Positions 1-41,326 of a DNA stretch of 41,326 nt are shown here, in pieces. Numbering within the stretch: the stretch's first letter is position 1; each line of letters opens with the position of its first letter. The translations under genes were made by a program, and so were the position numbers. Below the pieces are notes generated by a model. It worked only from the letters and a program-made list of their open reading frames with translations, was not told the origin of the DNA and ran no database searches. The stretch lies in the IMG/VR virus record IMGVR_UViG_2718218397_000001. One strand, given 5' to 3'. This DNA comes from a virus. Its lineage: Duplodnaviria > Heunggongvirae > Uroviricota > Caudoviricetes.

Positions 1-1248
1 ATGGCACTGAATATTCCATTCAGAAATGCGTACTATCGTTTTGCATCCAGTTACTCATTTCTCTTTTTTATTTCCTGGTCGCTGTGGTGGTCGTTATACG
101 CTATTTGGCTGAAAGGACATCTAGGGTTGACAGGGACGGAATTAGGTACACTTTATTCGGTCAACCAGTTTACCAGCATTCTATTTATGATGTTCTACGG
201 CATCGTTCAGGATAAACTCGGTCTGAAGAAACCGCTCATCTGGTGTATGAGTTTCATCCTGGTCTTGACCGGACCGTTTATGATTTACGTTTATGAACCG
301 TTACTGCAAAGCAATTTTTCTGTAGGTCTAATTCTGGGGGCGCTATTTTTTGGCTTGGGGTATCTGGCGGGATGCGGTTTGCTTGATAGCTTCACCGAAA
401 AAATGGCGCGAAATTTTCATTTCGAATATGGAACAGCGCGCGCCTGGGGATCTTTTGGCTATGCTATTGGCGCGTTCTTTGCCGGCATATTTTTTAGTAT
501 CAGTCCCCATATCAACTTCTGGTTGGTCTCGCTATTTGGCGCTGTATTTATGATGATCAACATGCGTTTTAAAGATAAGGATCACCAGTGCGTAGCGGCA
601 GATGCGGGAGGGGTAAAAAAAGAGGATTTTATCGCAGTTTTCAAGGATCGAAACTTCTGGGTTTTCGTCATATTTATTGTGGGGACGTGGTCTTTCTATA
701 ACATTTTTGATCAACAACTTTTTCCTGTCTTTTATGCAGGTTTATTCGAATCACACGATGTAGGAACGCGCCTGTATGGTTATCTCAACTCATTCCAGGT
801 GGTACTCGAAGCGCTGTGCATGGCGATTATTCCTTTCTTTGTGAATCGGGTAGGGCCAAAAAATGCATTACTTATCGGAGTTGTGATTATGGCGTTGCGT
901 ATCCTTTCCTGCGCGCTGTTCGTTAACCCCTGGATTATTTCATTAGTGAAGTTGTTACATGCCATTGAGGTTCCACTTTGTGTCATATCCGTCTTCAAAT
1001 ACAGCGTGGCAAACTTTGATAAGCGCCTGTCGTCGACGATCTTTCTGATTGGTTTTCAAATTGCCAGTTCGCTTGGGATTGTGCTGCTTTCAACGCCGAC
1101 TGGGATACTCTTTGACCACGCAGGCTACCAGACAGTTTTCTTCGCAATTTCGGGTATTGTCTGCCTGATGTTGCTATTTGGCATTTTCTTCTTGAGTAAA
1201 AAACGCGAGCAAATAGTTATGGAAACGCCTGTACCTTCAGCAATATAG
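1..1248 (+). CDS. cscB: LacY-family oligosaccharide/H+ symporter, sucrose permease-like (host gene)
   Basis: 415-aa ORF, multi-pass hydrophobic profile, LacY-like motifs; I recall this sequence as CscB, and csc loci are known to sit next to argW. Confidence 0.75.
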   Translation: MALNIPFRNAYYRFASSYSFLFFISWSLWWSLYAIWLKGHLGLTGTELGTLYSVNQFTSILFMMFYGIVQDKLGLKKPLIWCMSFILVLTGPFMIYVYEPLLQSNFSVGLILGALFFGLGYLAGCGLLDSFTEKMARNFHFEYGTARAWGSFGYAIGAFFAGIFFSISPHINFWLVSLFGAVFMMINMRFKDKDHQCVAADAGGVKKEDFIAVFKDRNFWVFVIFIVGTWSFYNIFDQQLFPVFYAGLFESHDVGTRLYGYLNSFQVVLEALCMAIIPFFVNRVGPKNALLIGVVIMALRILSCALFVNPWIISLVKLLHAIEVPLCVISVFKYSVANFDKRLSSTIFLIGFQIASSLGIVLLSTPTGILFDHAGYQTVFFAISGIVCLMLLFGIFFLSKKREQIVMETPVPSAI

Positions 1249-1689
1249 ACGTAAACTTTTTCCGGTTGTTGTCGATAGCTCTATATCCCTCAACCGGAAA
1301 ATAATAATAGTAAAATGCTTAGCCCTGCTAATAATCGCCTAATCCAAACGCCTCATTCATGTTCTGGTACAGTCGCTCAAATGTACTTCAGATGCGCGGT
1401 TCGCTGATTTCCAGGACATTGTCGTCATTCAGTGACCTGTCCCGTGTATCACGGTCCTGCGAATTCATCAAGGAATGCATTGCGGAGTGAAGTATCGAGT
1501 CACGCCATATTTCGCTATCAGGATTCTGTGTGATGGTTACATCGCCCGGCCCAGGGCTGTTTAGTCATCAGCGCTTTCTGACAGTGCTGAGATTTCAACC
1601 TGTTGCAGTAAAAATGAGTAGATATAAGGCAAGTGTGCTGCCAAACCCATCTTTTACGGGGTGAAGGTAGATTTCGTTTGAAGGGTATC

Positions 1690-1704
1690 TGGTGTCCCCT
1701 GCAG
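1690..1704 (-). other. Prophage attachment core: 15-nt copy of the 3' end of tRNA-Arg (argW), reverse complement CTGCAGGGGACACCA
   Basis: Plus strand reads tggtgtcccctgcag; the tRNA-like sequence breaks immediately to the right, where phage DNA begins. Confidence 0.55.
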
Positions 1705-1777
1705 ACATCTACTTGACGAGGCAGGGGATTGATTAGAATGGTGTTTTTTAGATGTGAGAAATATTTTACCCGCTATT

Positions 1778-1978
1778 TTACCCATTGGCGCGGCTTAAAA
1801 GCTTATTTTTGAATTCACAATGGTCACGATATAACCATCTTGCTCGTCCGTGGATAACTTTGGCTTTAGGCAGGTCTCCGGACTTAATCCGGTCATAGAT
1901 GAAGGTTTTACCAAAGCCAGTATCAGCCATGATGAATTTCAAATCAACCAGTGAATCAGGCTGTAGTTCGTGTTGCAT
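1778..1978 (-). CDS. AlpA-like excisionase / DNA-binding regulator
   Basis: 66-aa ORF, small HTH-type protein adjacent to att core; resembles the AlpA/Xis family. Confidence 0.55.
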   Translation of the reverse strand: MQHELQPDSLVDLKFIMADTGFGKTFIYDRIKSGDLPKAKVIHGRARWLYRDHCEFKNKLLSRANG

Positions 1979-2023
1979 GAGTGCTATCTCCGAATAGGGA
2001 ATCGAACCTGCAAATCAGGTAAT

Positions 2024-2043
2024 AAAAAACCGCCATCAGGCGG
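2024..2043 (-). terminator. Putative intrinsic terminator (minus strand)
   Basis: ccgcc-atca-ggcgg hairpin followed on the minus strand by a T-run (plus aaaaaa). Confidence 0.4.
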
Positions 2044-2203
2044 CTTGGTGTTCTTTCAGTTCTTCAATTCGAATATTGGTTACGTCTGCATTCGCTATCT
2101 GCGCCCATATCATCCAGTGGTTATAGCAGTCGTTGATGTCCTCTGCTTCGATAACCCTGTCGAATGGCTCTCCATTCCATTCACCTGTGACTCGGAAGTG
2201 CAT
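2036..2203 (-). CDS. Hypothetical small protein (55 aa)
   Basis: ATG-initiated ORF read by hand, ends in the terminator hairpin; not in the ORF track (below 60 aa). Confidence 0.3.
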   Translation of the reverse strand: MHFRVTGEWNGEPFDRVIEAEDINDCYNHWMIWAQIANADVTNIRIEELKEHQAA

Positions 2204-2361
2204 TTATCATCTCCATAAAACAAAACTCGCCGTAGCGAGTTCAGATAAAAGAAATCCCCGCGAGTGCGAGGAATGTTATTGTCTTTTCTTCGTGCATTTG
2301 TCGCACTTTCGGCACCATCCAGATAGGCACATCCGTCCGCAATTAACACATATAGGCCACA

Positions 2362-2640
2362 TCATTTTTCCTCTTTTGGTTTATGAATCTGAATGGTCAT
2401 GCCGCTTTGAGTGGTGACTACAATGACAGAACCAGGCTGAAGACTGTTAAGATTGAATGCTTCGTAAAACGAATCCAATGCCAGTGCTTTTTTATTCTTT
2501 CGGTTCCACCAACGCCATCCCCTGCTACAGGCCATGTTGACAATCCACTGCCCACTCCTGTAAGCCATATAAAACCAGATAAGCAAAACCTGAAGGAATG
2601 CTATCCAGTCAATGATCGTATATTTCGCGAAGGAGTCCAT
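2362..2640 (-). CDS. Hypothetical small membrane protein
   Basis: ORF 2362..2691; internal Met at 2640 overlaps the stop of the upstream gene; hydrophobic segment IIDWIAFLQVLLIWFYMAY. Confidence 0.4.
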   Translation of the reverse strand: MDSFAKYTIIDWIAFLQVLLIWFYMAYRSGQWIVNMACSRGWRWWNRKNKKALALDSFYEAFNLNSLQPGSVIVVTTQSGMTIQIHKPKEEK

Positions 2641-2852
2641 CACTTCACCTCCTGCGCCGTTTTGATGATTGCTGCCAGACAATTCTTGCAAGGAACAAGC
2701 AGCGTTCCCTGCTCAATGCTCAATAGCGCATGCTGAGCATCCTGAAAAAGCCATTCGAATGACCCTGGCCGATGACCGCACCATGTCTCAATCTCGTGCT
2801 TAGGGAGTTTAACTCCCTCTCGATAGTCATATTTGATGATGTGCTTGCTCAC
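2640..2852 (-). CDS. Hypothetical protein (70 aa)
   Basis: ORF in the early-left gene string, overlapping neighbours in the usual phage manner. Confidence 0.4.
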   Translation of the reverse strand: MSKHIIKYDYREGVKLPKHEIETWCGHRPGSFEWLFQDAQHALLSIEQGTLLVPCKNCLAAIIKTAQEVK

Positions 2853-3376
2853 GACTTCACCTCCTGTTTCGGCGCTGCTGGCATTTCACGCCAGTGCGTA
2901 ACTGAGTGCGGATCCGGATATTCGGTGCCATCATCCCAGCGATTGCCATTCCACATTGCAGACCACATCTCACCGTCTTCATACATGACCATTACCGGAA
3001 TTAACTTATCTGGCATTCGCTCACTACAGCTTATCCAACCATCCGGAGTTACCGGCACTGGCTGGGCGGTATAAAGCGGTGTTATATCTGCCCGAAAATT
3101 ACATGCTTTATGCATCCGCACCCACCGTTCGACTTCTGCTTTGTCAGGATACATGCCAGTGAACGTGTTATATTCACGGTCAATTTGCGTGAAGGTTACC
3201 TTCCACGCCACCGGCTCTGCTTCCAGAGATGCCAGTGCAATTCGTGCCAGTTCCATTTGTTCGCCACGAGTAAGTCCGTTATCAAGCGGATTTTTAATGA
3301 ATAATTTGATACGTTCTTTGGTTATAGCGCTCATATCACTCTCCTTTGATGCGAATGCCAGTAGCGCGGATTGCAT
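2849..3376 (-). CDS. DUF551-like phage protein
   Basis: 175-aa ORF with a Trp-rich C-terminus (MWSAMWNGNRWDDGTEYPD) that I read as DUF551-like. Confidence 0.5.
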   Translation of the reverse strand: MQSALLAFASKESDMSAITKERIKLFIKNPLDNGLTRGEQMELARIALASLEAEPVAWKVTFTQIDREYNTFTGMYPDKAEVERWVRMHKACNFRADITPLYTAQPVPVTPDGWISCSERMPDKLIPVMVMYEDGEMWSAMWNGNRWDDGTEYPDPHSVTHWREMPAAPKQEVKS

Positions 3377-5321: not shown

Positions 5322-5870
5322 TTATTTAGCTAATTTTTTCCAGATCGCTGAAACGTATTTGGCTTGGTGGATGGCATCATCAAGCGCGTTGTGGCGAGTT
5401 CCTTTGAATGGCATATCTCGCTTAGGATCGAATCCTATTACCTTCCCAAGTTCGACGATTGTTCTTACGTCGCGGTCATTCCACCACTGCCACGGAACTG
5501 GCTGCCCTGTCAGCGAATAACTGTTGCGGAGAATAACGCAGTCAAATGATGCTCCATTCCCCCAAACCTGAACGAATTTGTGGTTAGCGTTCTTTATGAT
5601 GAATTCAGATAACCATGAAAGAGCCGTTGAAAGCTCCTGAGTGTTGCTGGTTAGCGATTTTCTGGCTTCTTCACTCTGTTCCATCCACCATAAAATCGTT
5701 GAAGCGTCAGGACGCGCTCGATATCGCATTGATGATTCAAGCGAGATATTTACCGAGAACTCTTCTCCTGTTTCTCCGGTATTCGGGTCAAAGAATACCG
5801 CCCCAATAGAAATAACAGGCGCGTATGGCCCGTTGCCCATTGTTTCAAGGTCAACCATTAAGTGATTCAT
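5322..5870 (-). CDS. DnaQ-like 3'-5' exonuclease (recombination module)
   Basis: 182-aa ORF starting MNHLMVDLETMGN (DEDD exonuclease motif I-like), next to SSB and annealase. Confidence 0.7.
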   Translation of the reverse strand: MNHLMVDLETMGNGPYAPVISIGAVFFDPNTGETGEEFSVNISLESSMRYRARPDASTILWWMEQSEEARKSLTSNTQELSTALSWLSEFIIKNANHKFVQVWGNGASFDCVILRNSYSLTGQPVPWQWWNDRDVRTIVELGKVIGFDPKRDMPFKGTRHNALDDAIHQAKYVSAIWKKLAK

Positions 5871-5878
5871 GTAAGTCC

Positions 5879-6394
5879 TTAAATTGCGTGAATAGCGTGA
5901 CGAGGGAAGGGGAGAGTTACTGGTGCAAAGGGTATATCGTCGTCAAAATCCATAGGTGGTTCGCTGTGATTCCCTTGCTGCTGAGGTTGCTGTCTTTGTT
6001 GCTGACCGTTATTTCGCTGAGGTGAAGACTGTTCATTGCCTCCTTGCTTGCCACCAATCATTTGCATAGTTCCACCAACGCCCACGATGACTTCAGTAGT
6101 GAACCGATCCTGTCCGCTTTGATCCTGCCATTTTCTTGTCCGCAATTTGCCTTCAAGATAAACCTCAGAGCCTTTTCGCAGATATTCGCTGGCAATTTCT
6201 GCCAGTTTCCCGCTCATTACCACGCGGTGCCACTCCGTCTGCTCCTTTTGCTCTCCAGTTTGCTTATCACGCCATTGTTCTGACGTAGCAACTGTAAGGT
6301 TTGCAAATGCCGTTCCTGATGGTGAATATCTGATTTCTGGATCATGCCCAAGGCGACCAATAATGATCACCTTATTTACGCCTCTGCTTGCCAT
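5879..6394 (-). CDS. ssb: Single-stranded DNA-binding protein with 15-aa extension after the DDDIPF tail
   Basis: Strong similarity to E. coli SSB along the OB fold and acidic tail; ORF continues past DIPF as [15 protein letters not shown]. Confidence 0.85.
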
Positions 6395-7102
6395 TTATGC
6401 CGCCTGTTTTAGCTCGTTAACTCTGATGTTCATTACCTGAACGCATTTAGCCTGCGCCTCCTCGTTTCCAGCCATTAATTGCCAGTCACGCTGATAACGC
6501 TCGATGAGTTTTTTCTTATCAGTTTCTTTCGATGCATAATCGCTGAAGTCTTTCAGGATTTGTTCGCAGTCAACCGATGGAGATTTCTGGTTGGTATTTT
6601 CTGGTGATGGTTTGTTATCTGATGCTGGGATTGCCCAGCCGGGCAGCGTTGGAGGGAGCCAGTAAAACCCTGTTCCATCCTTCAGTTTTGCCCTGTGCCA
6701 CCCCTGCTTTTTATCGAGAGATGTTTGTGCGAAACCTTCCTCAAGGTTATACAGATACCGACCGATTCCCCATTGAACGGCAGCGCGCTTCATTGCACCG
6801 GAACGACCACCTTTGACGGCTTCTACTTGCGTGTTTTCAGCAGCATCCCATTTGGTTACCCATTCGGAATCAATCTTGATTGATATGCCGCATTCAACTC
6901 CGCCGTTGTTGGGAATATCGCGGTATTCATTGCGCCATCCTGCTTTGCCGCAAACATCGTCCAGGCGTTTCATGATTGCCCTGTTCGTGACATAAGCCAG
7001 CACCATAGCCCACACTTTTCCATCGCGTGTTTTACCGCTTTGCTGTATTCGCCATTCGATATCTTCAGGGCTGAATGGCTCATCGAATTTATTCAAATCC
7101 AT
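6395..7102 (-). CDS. Rad52/Sak-like single-strand annealing protein
   Basis: 235-aa ORF with KGGRSGAMKRAAVQWGIGRYLY motif, positioned where lambda carries bet. Confidence 0.6.
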   Translation of the reverse strand: MDLNKFDEPFSPEDIEWRIQQSGKTRDGKVWAMVLAYVTNRAIMKRLDDVCGKAGWRNEYRDIPNNGGVECGISIKIDSEWVTKWDAAENTQVEAVKGGRSGAMKRAAVQWGIGRYLYNLEEGFAQTSLDKKQGWHRAKLKDGTGFYWLPPTLPGWAIPASDNKPSPENTNQKSPSVDCEQILKDFSDYASKETDKKKLIERYQRDWQLMAGNEEAQAKCVQVMNIRVNELKQAA

Positions 7103-7201: not shown

Positions 7202-7360
7202 TTATGGCGATACCAGAGAGCTTTCTGCGTGTACATGCGTCTCTGTAACTTGCTCTCCTTCACTGTGGTTGCAAGTGGCATGAATATCTCCTTCGTTACC
7301 GATTAATTCTTTCATCTGACGAATGAATTCTTCGTCTGACCAGTTATCTGTAAAACTCAT
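7202..7360 (-). CDS. Hypothetical small acidic protein (52 aa)
   Basis: Hand-read ORF with ATGA overlap to the kil stop; occupies the lambda gam position. Confidence 0.35.
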   Translation of the reverse strand: MSFTDNWSDEEFIRQMKELIGNEGDIHATCNHSEGEQVTETHVHAESSLVSP

Positions 7361-7509
7361 TTCCTGCGATACCACGGAAGGTTGATAGCTGATTTCATCG
7401 CTTTATTTGCTTCAAGCCACATTTTTGAATCACCAATAAATCTGGCTATTACTGCTTTGTTCTGTGCAGCACGAAGCATCTGGTGATTAATGGCTATTTC
7501 ATTGCGCAT
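7357..7509 (-). CDS. kil: Kil-like protein
   Basis: 50-aa hand-read ORF; IARFIGDSKMW resembles lambda Kil IATFIGDEKMF; sits next to cIII. Confidence 0.55.
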   Translation of the reverse strand: MRNEIAINHQMLRAAQNKAVIARFIGDSKMWLEANKAMKSAINLPWYRRK

Positions 7510-7628
7510 AACGCCTCCAGTTGTTTCTTTGCTGCTCTGATTAATTGTTTAACTCGGCGTGATAATTCAGATTCGTGCGGGTAGAAAGCGGACATGACGC
7601 CGCTACCCGCGAGCTGAAAGTGCATCAT
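7494..7628 (-). CDS. cIII: cIII-like protease inhibitor
   Basis: 44-aa product MMHFQLAGSGVMSAFYPHESELSRRVKQLIRAAKKQL resembles lambda/P22 CIII; aaggag SD. Confidence 0.65.
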   Translation of the reverse strand: MMHFQLAGSGVMSAFYPHESELSRRVKQLIRAAKKQLEALCAMK

Positions 7629-7694
7629 GGGTAACTCCTTATATTTGATTGCATAACGAAAACGCCTCGAGTGAAGCGTTATTGGTATGCATAT

Positions 7695-7718
7695 AAAAAA
7701 GCCCTCACACTGGAGGGC
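7695..7718 (-). terminator. Intrinsic terminator (tL1-like) upstream of cIII
   Basis: gccctc-acactg-gagggc hairpin followed on the minus strand by a T-run. Confidence 0.55.
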
Positions 7719-7852
7719 AAAGAAGATTTCCAATAATCAGAACAAGTCGGCTCCTGTTTAGTTACGAGCGACATTGCTCCGTGTATTCACTCGTTGGAAT
7801 GAATACACAGTGCAGTGTTTATTCTGTTGTTTATGTCAAAAATAAAGGTCGA

Positions 7853-8311
7853 CTATGCGGCCTCGGAAGGAAGTCCAATCATCTTATTCAAATCTTCTAC
7901 CCGTAAAGCAGGAAGTGCTGTACTTGCTTTATCTGCTTCTTTTGGTAGCAATTCTTTGCTTTCAGGCCAAACCTCAATAAGTCGCTTAACTGTTGTGACT
8001 GAGTTCAAAGCAGCCCATACATTTGATTCGATATCCTTTTTCTTGGCTTCAAGTTTTTGTTGCAATGCGCAGATTTCATCAAACCTTTTTGTTATTTCGT
8101 GTTCTGCGCTAAACATGCATTTATCTTTGTTCGGAGTAGGGAGCAATATATCTTCGCCGTTGCCGTCTTTCCCATATGAAAGCCATCCAACCCTTCTGCC
8201 AGATACAGTCAGATAAATTGAAGTAGAACGAACATCGTATGAGTAAAATGAACATCCAATCTTTCCAAGTTCTTCACTTATAGCTACCAACTTGGATGAT
8301 AACTGATCCAC
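7853..8311 (-). CDS. Hypothetical accessory protein in the N-proximal slot; frame continues upstream through an in-frame TAA to an SD+ATG at 8476
   Basis: 152-aa ORF from GTG; the upstream 12 codons (MSSIRLTTRMKE) in the same frame end at TAA 8438..8440. Confidence 0.45.
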   Translation of the reverse strand: MDQLSSKLVAISEELGKIGCSFYSYDVRSTSIYLTVSGRRVGWLSYGKDGNGEDILLPTPNKDKCMFSAEHEITKRFDEICALQQKLEAKKKDIESNVWAALNSVTTVKRLIEVWPESKELLPKEADKASTALPALRVEDLNKMIGLPSEAA

Positions 8312-8487
8312 TTCCTCAGTTTTCTTTTTACCGCCAAACGCAATAACTCTGGCGTCAAGTGCAAGCTGGTTCTTTAACTTTGTTACTTCTTCAAGTTCAG
8401 TGAAAACCCCAGACTTAATTAAAGCGTTACGAGCGATTTACTCTTTCATTCTCGTAGTTAAGCGGATTGATGACATATTAATTCCTC

Positions 8488-8814
8488 TCAAATAAGTGGT
8501 TTGCTGCCTAATTTCATTTTCTGGCGACCAACACAAGTCACACCCATTTCACTGCGTGGCTTGCTGTACCATGTGCGCTGATTCTTGCGCTCAATACGTT
8601 GCAGGTTGCTTTCAATCTGTTCGTGGTATTCAGCCAGTACCGTAAGGTCTATCGGATTCAGTGCGCTTTCTACTCGTGATTTCGGTTTGCGATTCAGCGA
8701 GAGAATAGGGCGGTTAACCGGTTTTGCGCTTACCCCAACCAACAGGGGATTTGCTGCTTTCCATTGAGCCTGTTTCTCTGCGCGACGTTCGCGGCGGCGT
8801 GTTTGTGCATCCAT
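8488..8814 (-). CDS. N: Antiterminator N (lambda type)
   Basis: 108-aa product matches lambda N (MDAQTRRRERRAEKQAQWKAANPLL...) from recall. Confidence 0.9.
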   Translation of the reverse strand: MDAQTRRRERRAEKQAQWKAANPLLVGVSAKPVNRPILSLNRKPKSRVESALNPIDLTVLAEYHEQIESNLQRIERKNQRTWYSKPRSEMGVTCVGRQKMKLGSKPLI

Positions 8815-9082: not shown

Positions 9083-9112
9083 GCCCTTCTTCAGGGCTTA
9101 ATTTTTAAGAGC
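9083..9112 (-). promoter_or_regulatory. nutL (boxA GCTCTTAAA and boxB GCCCTGAAGAAGGGC on minus strand)
   Basis: Matches the lambda nutL boxA/boxB hairpin motif. Confidence 0.75.
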
Positions 9113-9275: not shown

Positions 9276-10628
<1,353 letters not shown>

Positions 10629-13601: not shown

Positions 13602-14042
13602 ATGAAAAAACTAACCTTTGAAATTCGATCTCCAGCACATCAGCAAAACGCTATTCACGCAGTACAGCAAATCCTTCCAGACACAACCAAACCAATCGTA
13701 GTAACCATTCAGGAGCGCAACCGCAGCTTAGACCAGAATCGGAAGCTTTGGGCTTGCCTTGGTGACGTCTCTCGTCAGGTTGAATGGCATGGTCGCTGGC
13801 TGGATGCAGAAAGCTGGAAGTGTGTGTTTACCGCAGCATTAAAGCAGCAGGACGTTGTTCCTAACCTTGCCGGGAATGGCTTTGTGGTAATAGGCCAGTC
13901 AACCAGCAGGATGCGTGTAAGCGAATTTGCGGAGCTATTAGAGCTTATACAGGCATTCGGTACAGAGCGTGGCGTTAAGTGGTCAGACGAAGCGAGACTG
14001 GCTCTGGAGTGGAAAGCGAGATGGGGAGATCGGGCTGCATGA
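13602..14042 (+). CDS. ninB: NinB (Orf family recombination mediator)
   Basis: Product MKKLTFEIRSPAHQQNAIHAVQQILPD... matches lambda NinB from recall. Confidence 0.85.
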   Translation: MKKLTFEIRSPAHQQNAIHAVQQILPDTTKPIVVTIQERNRSLDQNRKLWACLGDVSRQVEWHGRWLDAESWKCVFTAALKQQDVVPNLAGNGFVVIGQSTSRMRVSEFAELLELIQAFGTERGVKWSDEARLALEWKARWGDRAA

Positions 14043-14911
14043 TAAATGTCGTTAGTTTCTCCGGTGGCAGGACGTCAGCATATTTGCTCTGGCTAATGGA
14101 GCAAAAGCGACTGGCAGGTAAAGACGTGCATTACGTTTTCATGGATACAGGTTGTGAACATCCAATGACATATCGGTTTGTCAGGGAAGTTGTGAAGTTC
14201 TGGGATATACCGCTCACCGTATTGCAGGTTGATATCAACCCGGAGCTTGGACAGCCAAATGGTTATACGGTATGGGAACCAAAGGATATTCAGACGCGAA
14301 TGCCTGTTCTGAAGCCATTTATCGATATGGTAAAGAAATATGGCACTCCATACGTCGGCGGCGCGTTCTGCACTGACAGATTAAAACTCGTTCCCTTCAC
14401 CAAATACTGTGATGACCATTTCGGGCGAGGGAATTACACCACGTGGATTGGCATCAGAGCTGATGAACCGAAGCGGCTAAAGCCAAAGCCTGGAATCAGA
14501 TATCTTGCTGAACTGTCAGACTTTGAGAAGGAAGATATCCTCGCATGGTGGAAGCAACAACCATTCGATTTGCAAATACCGGAACATCTCGGTAACTGCA
14601 TATTCTGCATTAAAAAATCAACGCAAAAAATCGGACTTGCCTGCAAAGATGAGGAGGGATTGCAGCGTGTTTTTAATGAGGTCATCACGGGATCCCATGT
14701 GCGTGACGGACATCGGGAAACGCCAAAGGAGATTATGTACCGAGGAAGAATGTCGCTGGACGGTATCGCGAAAATGTATTCAGAAAATGATTATCAAGCC
14801 CTGTATCAGGACATGGTACGAGCTAAAAGATTCGATACCGGCTCTTGTTCTGAGTCATGCGAAATATTTGGAGGGCAGCTTGATTTCGACTTCGGGAGGG
14901 AAGCTGCATGA
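14039..14911 (+). CDS. ninC: NinC-like protein (PAPS-reductase-like fold, 290 aa)
   Basis: 290 aa as lambda orf-290; SFSGGRTS P-loop-like motif; ATGA overlap with ninB. Confidence 0.65.
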
Positions 14912-18410: not shown

Positions 18411-18485
18411 GGGTCAGTCGTATAAAGGTCATTACGGAAGGCTGTTAACCTTCTTATCGTGGTTCGAGTCCACGCTGTCCCGCCA
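18411..18485 (+). tRNA. tRNA-like gene, anticodon GUU (Asn) by manual folding; two stem mismatches
   Basis: Cloverleaf folds by hand: anticodon loop CUGUUAA, T-arm cgtgg-TTCGAGT-ccacg, 3' CCA; U-U mismatch in acceptor stem. Confidence 0.5.
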
Positions 18486-18490
18486 AATAT

Positions 18491-18566
18491 GCTGGTTTAG
18501 CTCCAATGGTAGAGCAGTCGCCTTGTAAGCGAATGGGTAGCGGTTCAAGTCCGTTAACCAGCACCA
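18491..18566 (+). tRNA. tRNA-Thr (anticodon UGU) by manual folding
   Basis: Perfect 7-bp acceptor stem, D-arm gctc/gagc, anticodon loop CUUGUAA, T-loop TTCAAGT, encoded CCA. Confidence 0.6.
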
Positions 18567-36368: not shown

Positions 36369-36489
36369 CCTTGATGCCTCACCAGTTGGGTGGAATGGCA
36401 TCGTAACTTACTGGATAAATACTCAATAGTACCATTTCGGTATGCAATCACATCATGGTTGCATCATATCATTCGTCTGGAGCAATGAA

Positions 36490-38691
36490 ATGTCAGATAT
36501 CACCGCAAATGTTGTGGTAAGCATGCCTTCGCAACTCTTCACTATGGCTCGTTCTTTTAAAGCCGTAGCCAATGGCAAAATTTATATCGGTAAAATTGAC
36601 ACGGACCCGGTAAATCCTGAAAACCAGATTCAGGTTTATGTGGAGAACGAAGATGGTTCTCACGTCCCTGTTTCGCAACCAATCATCATTAATGCTGCTG
36701 GTTATCCGGTATATAACGGACAGATTGCCAAATTCGTAACTGTGCAAGGCCATTCTATGGCTGTTTACGATGCGTATGGCGTACAGCAATTCTATTTCCC
36801 TAATGTGCTGAAGTATGACCCTGACAGATTACAACAGCGACTTATTAGTCACTTGGATGGAAATGGAGATGCTTTAGTTGCTACTAAGCAACCTATTGCA
36901 GGGGCGAAAGATAAAACAGTACATGATTGGATTGCTGAGCATGTTTCTATTAAAGACATGTATGGTGTTATTGGTGATGGTGTTAACGATGATGCGCCTT
37001 ATATAATTACTGCACTATCCAACCTATTGATATCCTGTAATCCTATTGTATTTGTCCCTGGAACATATCTCATAAATTCAGACATTACATTTGATATCCC
37101 TGTGACATTTATTCGTGGAGCTGTATTAAAAGTAAGAAATGGTGCCGTAGTTAAATTTAATGCAGAAATTGATGCTGGAAGGTATGAGATATTTGACACA
37201 GAAGATGACTTTTTCAATAATTACTTAGAAACTCCATCTGTTAAGATACCAAATGGACCTGTTCGTATTGAGTGGTTTGGAGCTAAATCAGTAAGTAGTT
37301 ATGCAGATATAGCGTCAGCACATGATTGTTCAGATGCTTTTTTAAAGGCATGGCATGCAACATGCGGAGAATTTAATGTGGAAATAACTCCTGGTGCTCT
37401 TTATCAGTCAGAGTTTTATCATTCATATGTATCTTTATCATCAGGAAAATATAGAATGGATAAAAATCTAAAACTATGGCATAGGGTTATTTCGCCATCT
37501 ATCATCAGATATAATAAAAATGGAGGGGGGATAATTGGTGATGGAATGGGGTTGTCAATTCTTGTTTTTACAGATCCTAAGTATGAAGGAAATGCTTATG
37601 TTGAACTCAGTGATATGAGCGGAGAGATGCATGAGTTTCGTGATTTTAAAGTGACATTCTATGATCCAAATGCTACAGGAGATGATATATATTTTGGTAG
37701 AGCTGGGGCTTGCATTCTGTTCTCTAGCGCAGATAGTATAGTTACAAAGAATATATGGGCTGCTGGAGCAAAATATCTTCGCACTGATATTGATGGGGTT
37801 CGTAGGGGTGGTGTGGGTATACAATTTGAGTCATTGGTAGACCATTTTTTCGAGAATCTATTAGTAGAGCACTGTATAAACGGTATTGCATTTAGTTCCT
37901 GTGTTTCAAATGGTTTTAACATTAAGGGATTCTCTAATAGAGTATCTGATCTGGCATTTGGTAATTATATACCAGCATGGCCAGATCTAATCACGCAAAA
38001 TGGCGTAAATCTTGTATCTGTTTCTGGCATGGAGAGCAAGGCATGTCCTGCAACTCCTATTTATTTTGGGACGGTTGATAACAGGGTTAACATAACTAAT
38101 GTTAATATTAAAGGAAATGCAGAATCATCATCTTCAATAGTAACATTTAGAGCCATTGCGTTTAACCATGCTGGGGCCGGTGCAGTAGGATTGATTCAGG
38201 GCAATGTTATGAATGTGAACTACGGTCTTATTGATGACGGTGGAACAGCTTTTGCTGGTAAATCTGGTTCACCATTAAGACTAACTTTTAATGTTTATAA
38301 TGTTGCAGGGAATTCCGCAACAGAAACAGCTGTTGCTGTATTCAAAAACCCTTTGTCTAATGTCGATATTGATTTAGGTGTGAATGGCGCATTGTTTCCT
38401 GCGCTTATTAGCTCATGTAATTACGCCATAGCCAGAATTAATATTGTTGGTATCACTGGGTCAAACTCAGCTCCCTACGTGGCATTCGGATGCAATGCAG
38501 GAATATTAATAATTAGAAGTTTGAAAGCATCAGGAAGTTCAGCGGCATACCTTGGCTATGCAGGAGGATCGTCTCAAGTCATTCTTCCATCTGCAATGTC
38601 AGCTGATATCACACTGGTTAGGAAAGGTTCAGGCTCTTCTGCTGATATAAGGCAGGAATCATCTTCACCTTACAACAATATTCAGTCTTAA
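36490..38691 (+). CDS. Tailspike: P22-type N-terminal head-binding domain fused to a different receptor-binding domain
   Basis: [43 protein letters not shown] matches P22 gp9 N-terminus; remainder Gly/Asn/Ser-rich and AT-rich. Confidence 0.85.
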
Positions 38692-38762: not shown

Positions 38763-39755
38763 TCAATTGCTTATTTTATTGTATATTTTTATTGTTGTAA
38801 AATATGCGATAAAGAAACATAAGAAAGTGTATAATATAGTGTCTATAGAGTTATGCAGATACACCTTCAAACCAATCATTTTGAAAGATGAATAAATAAA
38901 TGTTTTAAGCATTTGCTCTGTTCCGCAAAGCACTAGAGTTGATTGCCCTATTAATATAACTTGCTTTATCTTTATGCGCTTTGCAATGGTAATGTTTGGG
39001 ATAAATAGCGCTGCCGTTATAATAAACGATGCAAGTATTTTTAAATATTCGTTTTTAATTCCATTATATATTGAGGCTGCCCCATAAAAATAAACATAAA
39101 TAAATAACGCCATCGACAATGAGCAAATTATGTAAGAGGTTATTTTTGATGTTAGGTTGCCATTATATTCTTGTGGCTCTTTAATATAACAGGAAAGGTA
39201 TGCGCCCAAAGCATAATAAGCAATATACCTTAAAGCGCTGTCAATATTAAAAAACAACTTTGGCTGAACACCTATTTTCATAATTGAAGAAACAAAGAAT
39301 ATCGCAATGCATGTTATGAAAATAAGATGCCTATTCTTTATTATAAGCTGTATAAATGAGTGCATCATTATAATAACAAACAAACATGGAAGAAACCAAA
39401 GTGATGCAGCAAATATGTGGTTTCTGATTCCTGGTATTATCTGGCTGGCAAGCTCTCTTACCTGATGGAAGTCATAATTATAGTATAGAGAAAAGAAAAT
39501 AAGGGAAATAAGCGAGAATGTAAAATACGGTATCAGTATCCTTTTTGAGGATTTAATCGCTATAATATTAAAATCATATAGAGAAGAGCATTTTTTAAAA
39601 AAAATCCCGGAAATAAAAAAGAATAACGGGACGTGAAATGAAAACACAAAAGGATATAACTGCTTTGCATTATCGCCAAAGTGTCCTAAGTAAATCCAAA
39701 ATATGGCCACTGCCTTTAATGAATCAATCCATTCTAAACGATGGTTGGCATTCAT
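38763..39755 (-). CDS. oac: O-antigen acetyltransferase (acyltransferase-3 family, Sf6 Oac-like)
   Basis: 330 aa, many TM segments, N-terminal RLEWIDSLKAVAIFWIYLGHF motif; very AT-rich; next to tailspike and int. Confidence 0.75.
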   Translation of the reverse strand: MNANHRLEWIDSLKAVAIFWIYLGHFGDNAKQLYPFVFSFHVPLFFFISGIFFKKCSSLYDFNIIAIKSSKRILIPYFTFSLISLIFFSLYYNYDFHQVRELASQIIPGIRNHIFAASLWFLPCLFVIIMMHSFIQLIIKNRHLIFITCIAIFFVSSIMKIGVQPKLFFNIDSALRYIAYYALGAYLSCYIKEPQEYNGNLTSKITSYIICSLSMALFIYVYFYGAASIYNGIKNEYLKILASFIITAALFIPNITIAKRIKIKQVILIGQSTLVLCGTEQMLKTFIYSSFKMIGLKVYLHNSIDTILYTFLCFFIAYFTTIKIYNKISN

Positions 39756-40168: not shown

Positions 40169-41326
40169 TCAGGAGAACTTTTCATCAATCCAGTCCGCCC
40201 ACCACTGCATCATTTCTCTGCGCTTATCGAGATACTGAGCATGGTTGTAAATACCGCGCACAGATCCGCCGTTGGCATGTGCAAGTTGCACTTCAATGGC
40301 GTCGGCAGGCCATTCGTGCTCGTTCATAATCGTGCTGAATTCATGCCTGAATCCGTGACCGCTTTCCAGACCCTCATAGCCGATTTGTTTGATCACAAGT
40401 AGCACCGCGTTCTCGCAGATTGGCTTTTTCTTATCGTTGCGCCCGGCAAAAACAAACTCTGATACTGGTTTAGTGATGGAGCTTAGCGTAGTGAGAAGTT
40501 CAACCACCTGGTCCGACATCGGGACCACATGAATTTTGCGGCCCTTCATCACACTGGCGTCGATGGTGATAATCCTGTTTTCAAAATCGACGTTCTTCCA
40601 TAGCATAGAACGAAGCTCTTTCGTTCTTAGGGCTGTGTAGCGTAAAACTTTGGTCGCAATGAGCGATACGATACTTCCTGAAAATGTTGCCAGTGCTTTG
40701 TTGAATGCAGGGATCTGGTCTGCAGGTAAAAACGGGAAGTTCTTCTTGCGGTATCCCTTCATGGCGTCTGCAAGGTCAGGTGCCGGGTTATATTTAGCCC
40801 TTCCGGTGACAATAGCGTAACGGAAAACCTCGCCGCATCTTCTGCGTGCTTTGTTGGCTCGCTCCATTGCACCGCGATCTTCAAATCTGCGGATTACTTC
40901 CAGCAGTTGCATCGGCTCAATATCCTGAATTTCAAGACCACCGATGATGGGTAAAATGTCGTCATCAAACATTTTGGCAAGTTCAGTTGCATAGCCTACT
41001 GACCAGACTTGCTTCTTGTGCTCGTACCATTCCTTGTAAATGGCACTAAAGGAATTGTTGTTAGACGAAGCCTTTTTCGCTTTTACCGGATCGATGCCAA
41101 CCGAGATGTCTTTCCTCGCGGTCCATGCTTTATCTCTTGCCTCCTGCAAAGTCATAAGCGGATATTTTCCTACGGTCAGTATTTTTTCCTTACCGTCAAT
41201 CTTGTAGCGAAGCTGCCATACCTTTTTCCCGGATACAGGGACATAAAGGTACAGGCCATTACCATCGAGAAGGCGGTATGGTTTTTCTTTCGGCTTTGCT
41301 GCTTCAATCTGCTTAACGGTGAGCAT
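40169..41326 (-). CDS. intS: Tyrosine integrase, P4 type (IntS-like); start at window edge
   Basis: 385-aa ORF I recognise as E. coli CPS-53 IntS-like (MLTVKQIEAAKPKEKPYRLLDGNGLYLYV...). Confidence 0.85.
   Translation of the reverse strand: MLTVKQIEAAKPKEKPYRLLDGNGLYLYVPVSGKKVWQLRYKIDGKEKILTVGKYPLMTLQEARDKAWTARKDISVGIDPVKAKKASSNNNSFSAIYKEWYEHKKQVWSVGYATELAKMFDDDILPIIGGLEIQDIEPMQLLEVIRRFEDRGAMERANKARRRCGEVFRYAIVTGRAKYNPAPDLADAMKGYRKKNFPFLPADQIPAFNKALATFSGSIVSLIATKVLRYTALRTKELRSMLWKNVDFENRIITIDASVMKGRKIHVVPMSDQVVELLTTLSSITKPVSEFVFAGRNDKKKPICENAVLLVIKQIGYEGLESGHGFRHEFSTIMNEHEWPADAIEVQLAHANGGSVRGIYNHAQYLDKRREMMQWWADWIDEKFS

Follow-up and report, generated by a model that had tools for sequence, protein, structure and literature searches.

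A recent, private ochre mutation (E13*) has very probably knocked out a dispensable Nmad5-family gene in the early left operon of the prophage analysed here, leaving a null or near-null allele. The whole stretch of DNA under study (the window; 41,326 nucleotides, IMG/VR record IMGVR_UViG_2718218397_000001) comes from an otherwise intact-looking P22/Sf6-like prophage, and the gene, now a pseudogene with a nonsense codon at position 13, occupies 7853..8476 on its minus strand (207 codons plus a stop). The pattern of a short ORF, a stop and a long ORF in the same frame comes from a point mutation, private to this copy, in an annotated family and needs no new mechanism to explain it; the gene family and this kind of feature are both already known.

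Read directly from the sequence, the minus-strand frame opens with ATG at 8476..8474, the ancestral start, and runs for 12 codons (MSSIRLTTRMKE; remnant ORF 8441..8476) before meeting TAA at 8440..8438. Past this codon the frame remains open for 194 sense codons without a break and ends with TAG at 7855..7853, so that the presumably untranslated rest of the gene covers 7853..8437 of the same strand. A Shine-Dalgarno (SD) element, GAGAGGA (8483..8489, minus strand), lies 6 nt 5' of the ATG, overlapping the stop codon of the upstream gene N, and is identical in phages HK542, mEp235 and Kapi1. In a simple anti-SD pairing scan, the duplex at ATG 8476 was the best among the in-frame candidate starts (-6.0 kcal/mol). 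The first ATG, GTG or TTG in frame after the TAA is the GTG at 8311 (codon 56, 8309..8311, minus strand), 43 codons (129 nt) beyond the stop, from which a product of 152 aa would be predicted, one that matched no record in an exact look-up; its sole SD-like element is a GAGG 2 nt upstream, a spacing that is too short. The coordinates and SD of this frame given in the initial annotation were all correct, with the frame after the stop counted here as 194 codons, and its description of GTG 8311 as the only canonical restart, one lacking a good SD, is borne out.

The frame beyond the stop is readily assigned to a family. Codons 14-207 matched Pfam PF18757 (Nmad5, nucleotide modification associated domain 5) with 224 bits (E=2.3e-66) against a cut-off of 27 bits, spanning profile positions 11-206 of 206, and also matched PHROG 1965, annotated as unknown function (E=1e-81). 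Residues 4-203 of the intact HK542 protein aligned to profile positions 1-206 of 206 (E=3e-72); as this match reaches position 1 of the profile, the 12 codons before the TAA belong to the Nmad5 domain as well. Judged from its sequence, the open frame after the TAA is not due to chance. The locus retains a full-domain profile match and the invariant residues of the family, while an unbroken frame from the conserved start is missing due to the TAA at codon 13, and in these terms it is best described as a pseudogene copy of the Nmad5 family rather than a functional member. Searches of NCBIfam and PADLOC with the Nmad5 protein yielded no match. The initial annotation had suggested an anti-restriction or exclusion gene of the ral or sieB type, an idea left unsupported by the Pfam scan, which returned only Nmad5, and by PADLOC, which returned nothing. 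The lambda ral/sieB/ea10 region is comparable in position, both being accessory slots of variable content that lie between N and cIII in the pL operon, but there is no sequence relationship between them, the window ORF matching Nmad5 only in the Pfam scan. An antisense plus-strand ORF at 7815..8216, which had been put forward as the possible real gene, gave no Pfam match even at E<=1 and was rejected.

Intact relatives of the gene are numerous. The region was present in 333 phage records by megablast, and a 624-nt intact gene beginning at the identical ATG is annotated in HK542, mEp235 and E. coli ISHS7 in GenBank and RefSeq, with further intact 207-codon copies from the same ATG in approximately 200 complete E. 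coli genomes. For Kapi1, the annotated coding sequence starts 60 nt further upstream and contains this ATG in frame. In all four of these named relatives (HK542 gp33, YP_007151768.1; mEp235 gp37, YP_007111613.1; Kapi1_018; E. coli WP_052943655.1 for the ISHS7 copy) the gene directly follows an N-type gene, as it does in the window, and the DNA is collinear with the window gene at 96-99.7% identity. RefSeq names the E. coli copies (ISHS7; WP_052943655.1) "Nmad5 family putative nucleotide modification protein". Each of these relatives has the same SD, a GAA or AAA codon at position 13 and a product of 207 aa, whereas the window carries TAA together with a private M73I substitution. Codon 13 holds the one frame-breaking change in the alignment: at its first base the window has T, against G in HK542 and in a Shimwellia prophage and A in mEp235 and in Kapi1. 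The premature ochre codon (8438..8440, minus strand) is therefore a single first-position transversion from an ancestral GAA (Glu) or AAA (Lys).

The nearest intact allele, that of E. coli ISHS7 (99.7% identity), is just two bases away: its codon 13 is GAA where the window has TAA, and its codon 73 is ATG where the window has ATT (M73I; 8258..8260, minus strand). Both codons fall in variable columns of a 25-sequence alignment, in which the window allele keeps 29 of 29 invariant columns. With the rest of the frame still open and only one further base separating the gene from its nearest intact allele, the mutation would appear to be recent. The earlier suggestion of a recently inactivated accessory gene is thus upheld by intact 207-codon homologs that share the ATG, have GAA or AAA in place of TAA, and differ by as few as two bases. 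At codon 73, the nearest alleles have ATG and Kapi1 has CTG; like E13*, M73I replaces G by T on the coding strand, it eliminates an in-frame ATG, and its column is variable across the Nmad5 family.

In order to place the stop codon among other copies, several collections were searched. A 61-nt probe centred on the TAA had zero exact matches in 75 phage records and 202 E. coli records, every match having at least one mismatch, and the exact 32-mer containing the TAA was absent from IMG/VR and JGI metagenome contigs. A degenerate pattern run against GTDB genomes returned solely the Shimwellia copy, with GAA. A pattern left open (N) at the variable base retrieved 116 loci from IMG/VR, in which codon 13 was GAA in 90, AAA in 26 and TAA in none, and 103 of the 109 evaluable copies had 207 codons from the same ATG. 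Since the TAA was found in no other sequenced copy examined, the allele is, as far as these comparisons extend, private to this prophage among the copies searched.

Other copies of the gene have been inactivated in other ways. An IS3-family element of 1.3 kb lies after approximately codon 36 in 47-48 Stx2a-converting phage records and in E. coli O121:H19 FWSEC0006, where the two halves are RefSeq pseudogenes; the insertion spans 1374..2682 in the retrieved locus of Stx2a phage Stx2_EH1965 (L005) and 1234..2447 in that of FWSEC0006 (L010), with a 4-bp overlap at the junctions. The copy in E. coli strain E15 is annotated as "frameshifted", and a Logan sequence (SRR9720094) carries a T4-to-T3 frameshift. 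Among the IMG/VR loci, L050 (IMGVR_UViG_2537561946_000003) has S3* (TCA to TAA) and L095 has E55* (GAA to TAA), both being otherwise full length, while L045 has a rearrangement junction after nt 448 and L081 a duplication of approximately 47 bp. The IS3, S3*, E55* and frameshift alleles resemble the window gene in being inactivated near the 5' end with the remainder recognisable, but they represent different mutational events on different allele backgrounds, and E13* occurs in none of them. Strain APC_JM3.2 was considered as a further interrupted copy and rejected, its extra 450 bp lying downstream of an intact gene. By this comparison of alleles, the Nmad5 gene is dispensable and has been lost several times independently. 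Across the same 116 loci, disruption of Nmad5 (3-4 of 109) could not be distinguished from that of N, Rad52 and cIII (0 of 24), a comparison limited by mosaicism, with 4-39 copies of each control gene that could be compared, and by the scoring of natural length variants as disrupted.

These alleles also bear on the possibility that sequencing or assembly produced the TAA in error, the real gene being intact with GAA at codon 13, which we consider unlikely. An error would account for an allele that is unique among the copies searched and for a single base change in a gene that is otherwise intact. However, the change is a substitution and not a homopolymer indel, which is not the usual type of error, and the same gene carries a second private substitution in M73I. 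In addition, the single-base nonsense alleles S3* and E55* in independent public contigs show that real nonsense alleles of this gene exist, and the gene map over the rest of the window is dense, with no obvious breaks.

The consequence of the mutation for the protein depends on what its N-terminus contributes. Across 25 aligned full-length homologs, the most distant at 32% identity, M1, R5, L6, A18, K21, G23, A39, R43, G48 and G49 are invariant and T7 is nearly so; by alignment, then, the N-terminus ranks among the best conserved parts of the Nmad5 family. The initial annotation had noted that its reading would fall if homologs began at the GTG or another internal site, an arrangement contradicted by the invariance of M1, R5 and L6. 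An AlphaFold2 model of the intact protein (mean pLDDT 84, pTM 0.69) shows three confident helices within residues 8-72 (8-22, 24-47 and 50-72), the first two of which (residues 8-47) have pLDDT 89-96; beyond them come a small sheet (86-100), a long helix (127-158) and short helices near the C-terminus. In outline, the intact product is predicted to have three long helices at its N-terminus, then a small beta-sheet and a helical C-terminal region that is strongly conserved.

Among close alleles (the window and loci L001, L002, L003, L006 and L007), dN/dS was approximately 0-0.1 in the C-terminal 82 codons (126-207) and approximately 0.2-1 in codons 1-125, and the intact alleles appear on this basis to be under purifying selection, very strong in the C-terminal 82 codons and weaker in codons 1-125. 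Amino-acid changes among the close alleles are concentrated in codons 1-125, with recurrently variable sites at 13, 48, 71, 73, 99, 116 and 123, while codons 126-207 are near-invariant as protein; the charge at codon 13 switches between E and K from lineage to lineage. Using tblastn, the family was found in Vibrio, Klebsiella, Salmonella, Pseudomonas (Yua/M6-type) and Bordetella phages, with the C-terminal 87 residues as its most widely shared part; it is these 87 residues that the Pseudomonas Yua-type phages have in common with lambdoid Nmad5.

It is very unlikely that the gene is still expressed, whether by reinitiation at GTG 8311 to give the 152-aa product or by UAA readthrough in an ochre-suppressor host. 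The 194 codons left open past the TAA and the GAGG just before GTG 8311 are compatible with continued expression, as is the prediction of this 152-aa ORF by gene callers in other broken copies of the gene (cluster P0008, with 232 member sequences). Those calls, however, come from genes broken by a frameshift or an IS insertion and do not represent a natural short isoform; the one representative of the cluster that was examined is the frameshifted Logan SRR9720094 gene. The spacing between GAGG and GTG and the 43-codon distance of the restart from the TAA also argue against reinitiation, and a protein begun there would miss 55 conserved residues, including the two confidently predicted helices 1 and 2 and all ten invariant residues listed above (M1 and the nine others). 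As to readthrough, there is no suppressor tRNA gene in the window, whose sole tRNA genes are Asn(GTT) and Thr(TGT), and the stop is present in no other copy examined. The two tRNA genes are located at 18411..18566 on the plus strand, just 5' of the lysis region.

That the TAA might be a programmed recoding site or a regulatory device, such as a leader peptide controlling a downstream gene, is brought to mind by the well-placed start and SD and the short upstream ORF, but is hardly credible when the 12 codons encode the conserved beginning of the Nmad5 protein itself, the stop occurs in 0 of 116 IMG/VR loci and 0 of 277 phage or E. coli records, and natural copies (the 103 of 109 noted above) read through as 207 codons. 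The locus has neither a conserved in-frame stop nor a suppressor tRNA or stop reassignment to go with it, and TAA terminates 20 of the 48 window ORFs of at least 80 aa, making it an ordinary stop here. The unusual expression mechanism offered as an alternative in the initial annotation therefore finds no support.

The knocked-out Nmad5 gene sits in a recognisable lambda-type early left operon. Directly upstream, in the same leftward operon, is the lambda-type antiterminator gene N (8488..8814, minus strand, with its TGA at 8490..8488; Pfam PF11438 N36, E=1.5e-26), and the next gene downstream is cIII (7494..7628, minus strand; Pfam cIII, E=2e-30), followed by kil (7357..7509, minus strand; Pfam Lambda_Kil, E=1.7e-20) and then, on the same strand as Nmad5, by genes for a Rad52-type recombinase (6395..7102), an SSB (5879..6394) and an exonuclease (5322..5870). 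A consensus scan placed a terminator-like hairpin, GCCCTC-CAGTGT-GAGGGC plus a T-run (7691..7718, hairpin 7718..7701, minus strand), between the Nmad5 stop and cIII, in what we take to be the position of lambda tL1, and a consensus match to a lambda-like boxB hairpin at 9083..9097 presumably marks nutL. The closest prophage backbone to the window, that of strain XYEH3934 (92% covered, 96.7% identity), carries in place of Nmad5 an unrelated hypothetical gene of 252 nt between N and cIII (2844..3095 of its retrieved locus, L009), which indicates that this slot exchanges cargo. Elsewhere, the Nmad5 cassette is found behind different N types and before different downstream genes.

Several features outside the early left operon were also recorded. 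The two edges of the window coincide exactly with start codons: the window opens with that of a LacY-family permease gene (1..1248, plus strand), apparently cscB of the chromosomal sucrose locus as in ON470594.1, and closes with that of a tyrosine integrase gene (40169..41326, minus strand). A candidate xis ORF (1778..1978; the aligned region is the excisionase hkaC in ON470594.1) and int lie at opposite ends. The window probably represents an integrated prophage cut at gene boundaries, at the argW/csc site used by Kapi1. An Acyl_transf_3 acyltransferase gene (38763..39755, minus strand), probably encoding an O-antigen acetylase like Sf6 oac, adjoins a P22-type tailspike gene with a head-binding domain (36442..38691, plus strand). 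Directly downstream of the cI-type repressor gene (9677..10309), and overlapping it, is a 158-aa ORF (9276..9752, minus strand) with no Pfam or NCBIfam match, in which an internal Met followed by a hydrophobic, signal-peptide-like stretch can be seen by eye. A location by the cI-type repressor gene is usual for lysogen-expressed exclusion genes such as rex.

As for what the intact protein might do, no study of the lambdoid copy was found in the literature, which yielded only the Dhillonvirus and M6/SN1 contexts, and the proteins recovered from BFVD were all uncharacterised Nmad5 members themselves, of Edwardsiella, Vibrio and Escherichia phages. In the M6-like phage SN1, Nmad5 is given as part of a thymidine-hypermodification cassette (PMC9476957). 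The nmad5 gene of Dhillonvirus, located near the capsid gene, was reported to be toxic to clone, and a Lys-to-Glu change in it, rather than a deletion, escapes the Tmn defence (PMC11846954); residue numbering there extends up to K296, which means that the protein is longer than lambdoid Nmad5. The Dhillonvirus protein and that of the M6/SN1-type cassette belong to the same Pfam family as the window gene, and an Nmad-annotated protein of Escherichia phage C130_2 is a fold match to the model (Foldseek E=1.7e-7). By analogy with the Dhillonvirus nmad5 mutations that escape Tmn, loss of the lambdoid gene, through independent early lesions (S3*, E13*, E55*, the IS3 insertion and frameshifts), might be repeatedly selected rather than a matter of neutral decay, with a protein that may be toxic or sensed by host defence; we regard this as doubtful.

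The name Nmad5 derives from a base-modification neighbourhood (aGPT-Pplase, nucleotide kinase, hydroxymethylase) that was not found around the window gene, and which is a contextual rather than a sequence-defining property of the family. Pfam scans of 20 selected window ORFs detected no such hypermodification partner, aGPT-Pplase and nucleotide kinase included. The "nucleotide modification" label is thus a prediction for the lambdoid copy. A PAPS-reductase domain was detected in a 310-aa ORF of the nin region (13979..14911, plus strand; E=2.7e-8), the only window gene examined with a possible nucleotide- or DNA-modification flavour.

Taken together, the Nmad5-family gene is an accessory gene carried right after N in the leftward early operon by many lambdoid and P22-like phages, and in this prophage one substitution, GAA to TAA at codon 13, has very probably interrupted it. 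Translation would still initiate at the intact SD and ATG and then end after the 12 residues of MSSIRLTTRMKE, leaving the remaining 194 codons essentially untranslated and the allele null or near-null. On the model of lambda, Nmad5 would be transcribed with N as part of an immediate-early message. In lambda, N-modified polymerase overcomes Rho-dependent polarity, and because such a polymerase would resist polarity here, expression of the downstream cIII, kil and recombination genes should be little affected.

What has been lost in this prophage is an early protein whose intact form belongs to the Nmad5 family. Natural null alleles such as this one show that a prophage can be maintained without Nmad5, an early protein widespread among phages, and the TAA and GAA alleles would provide ready isogenic material for probing the role of Nmad5 in infection, including the response of host defences.
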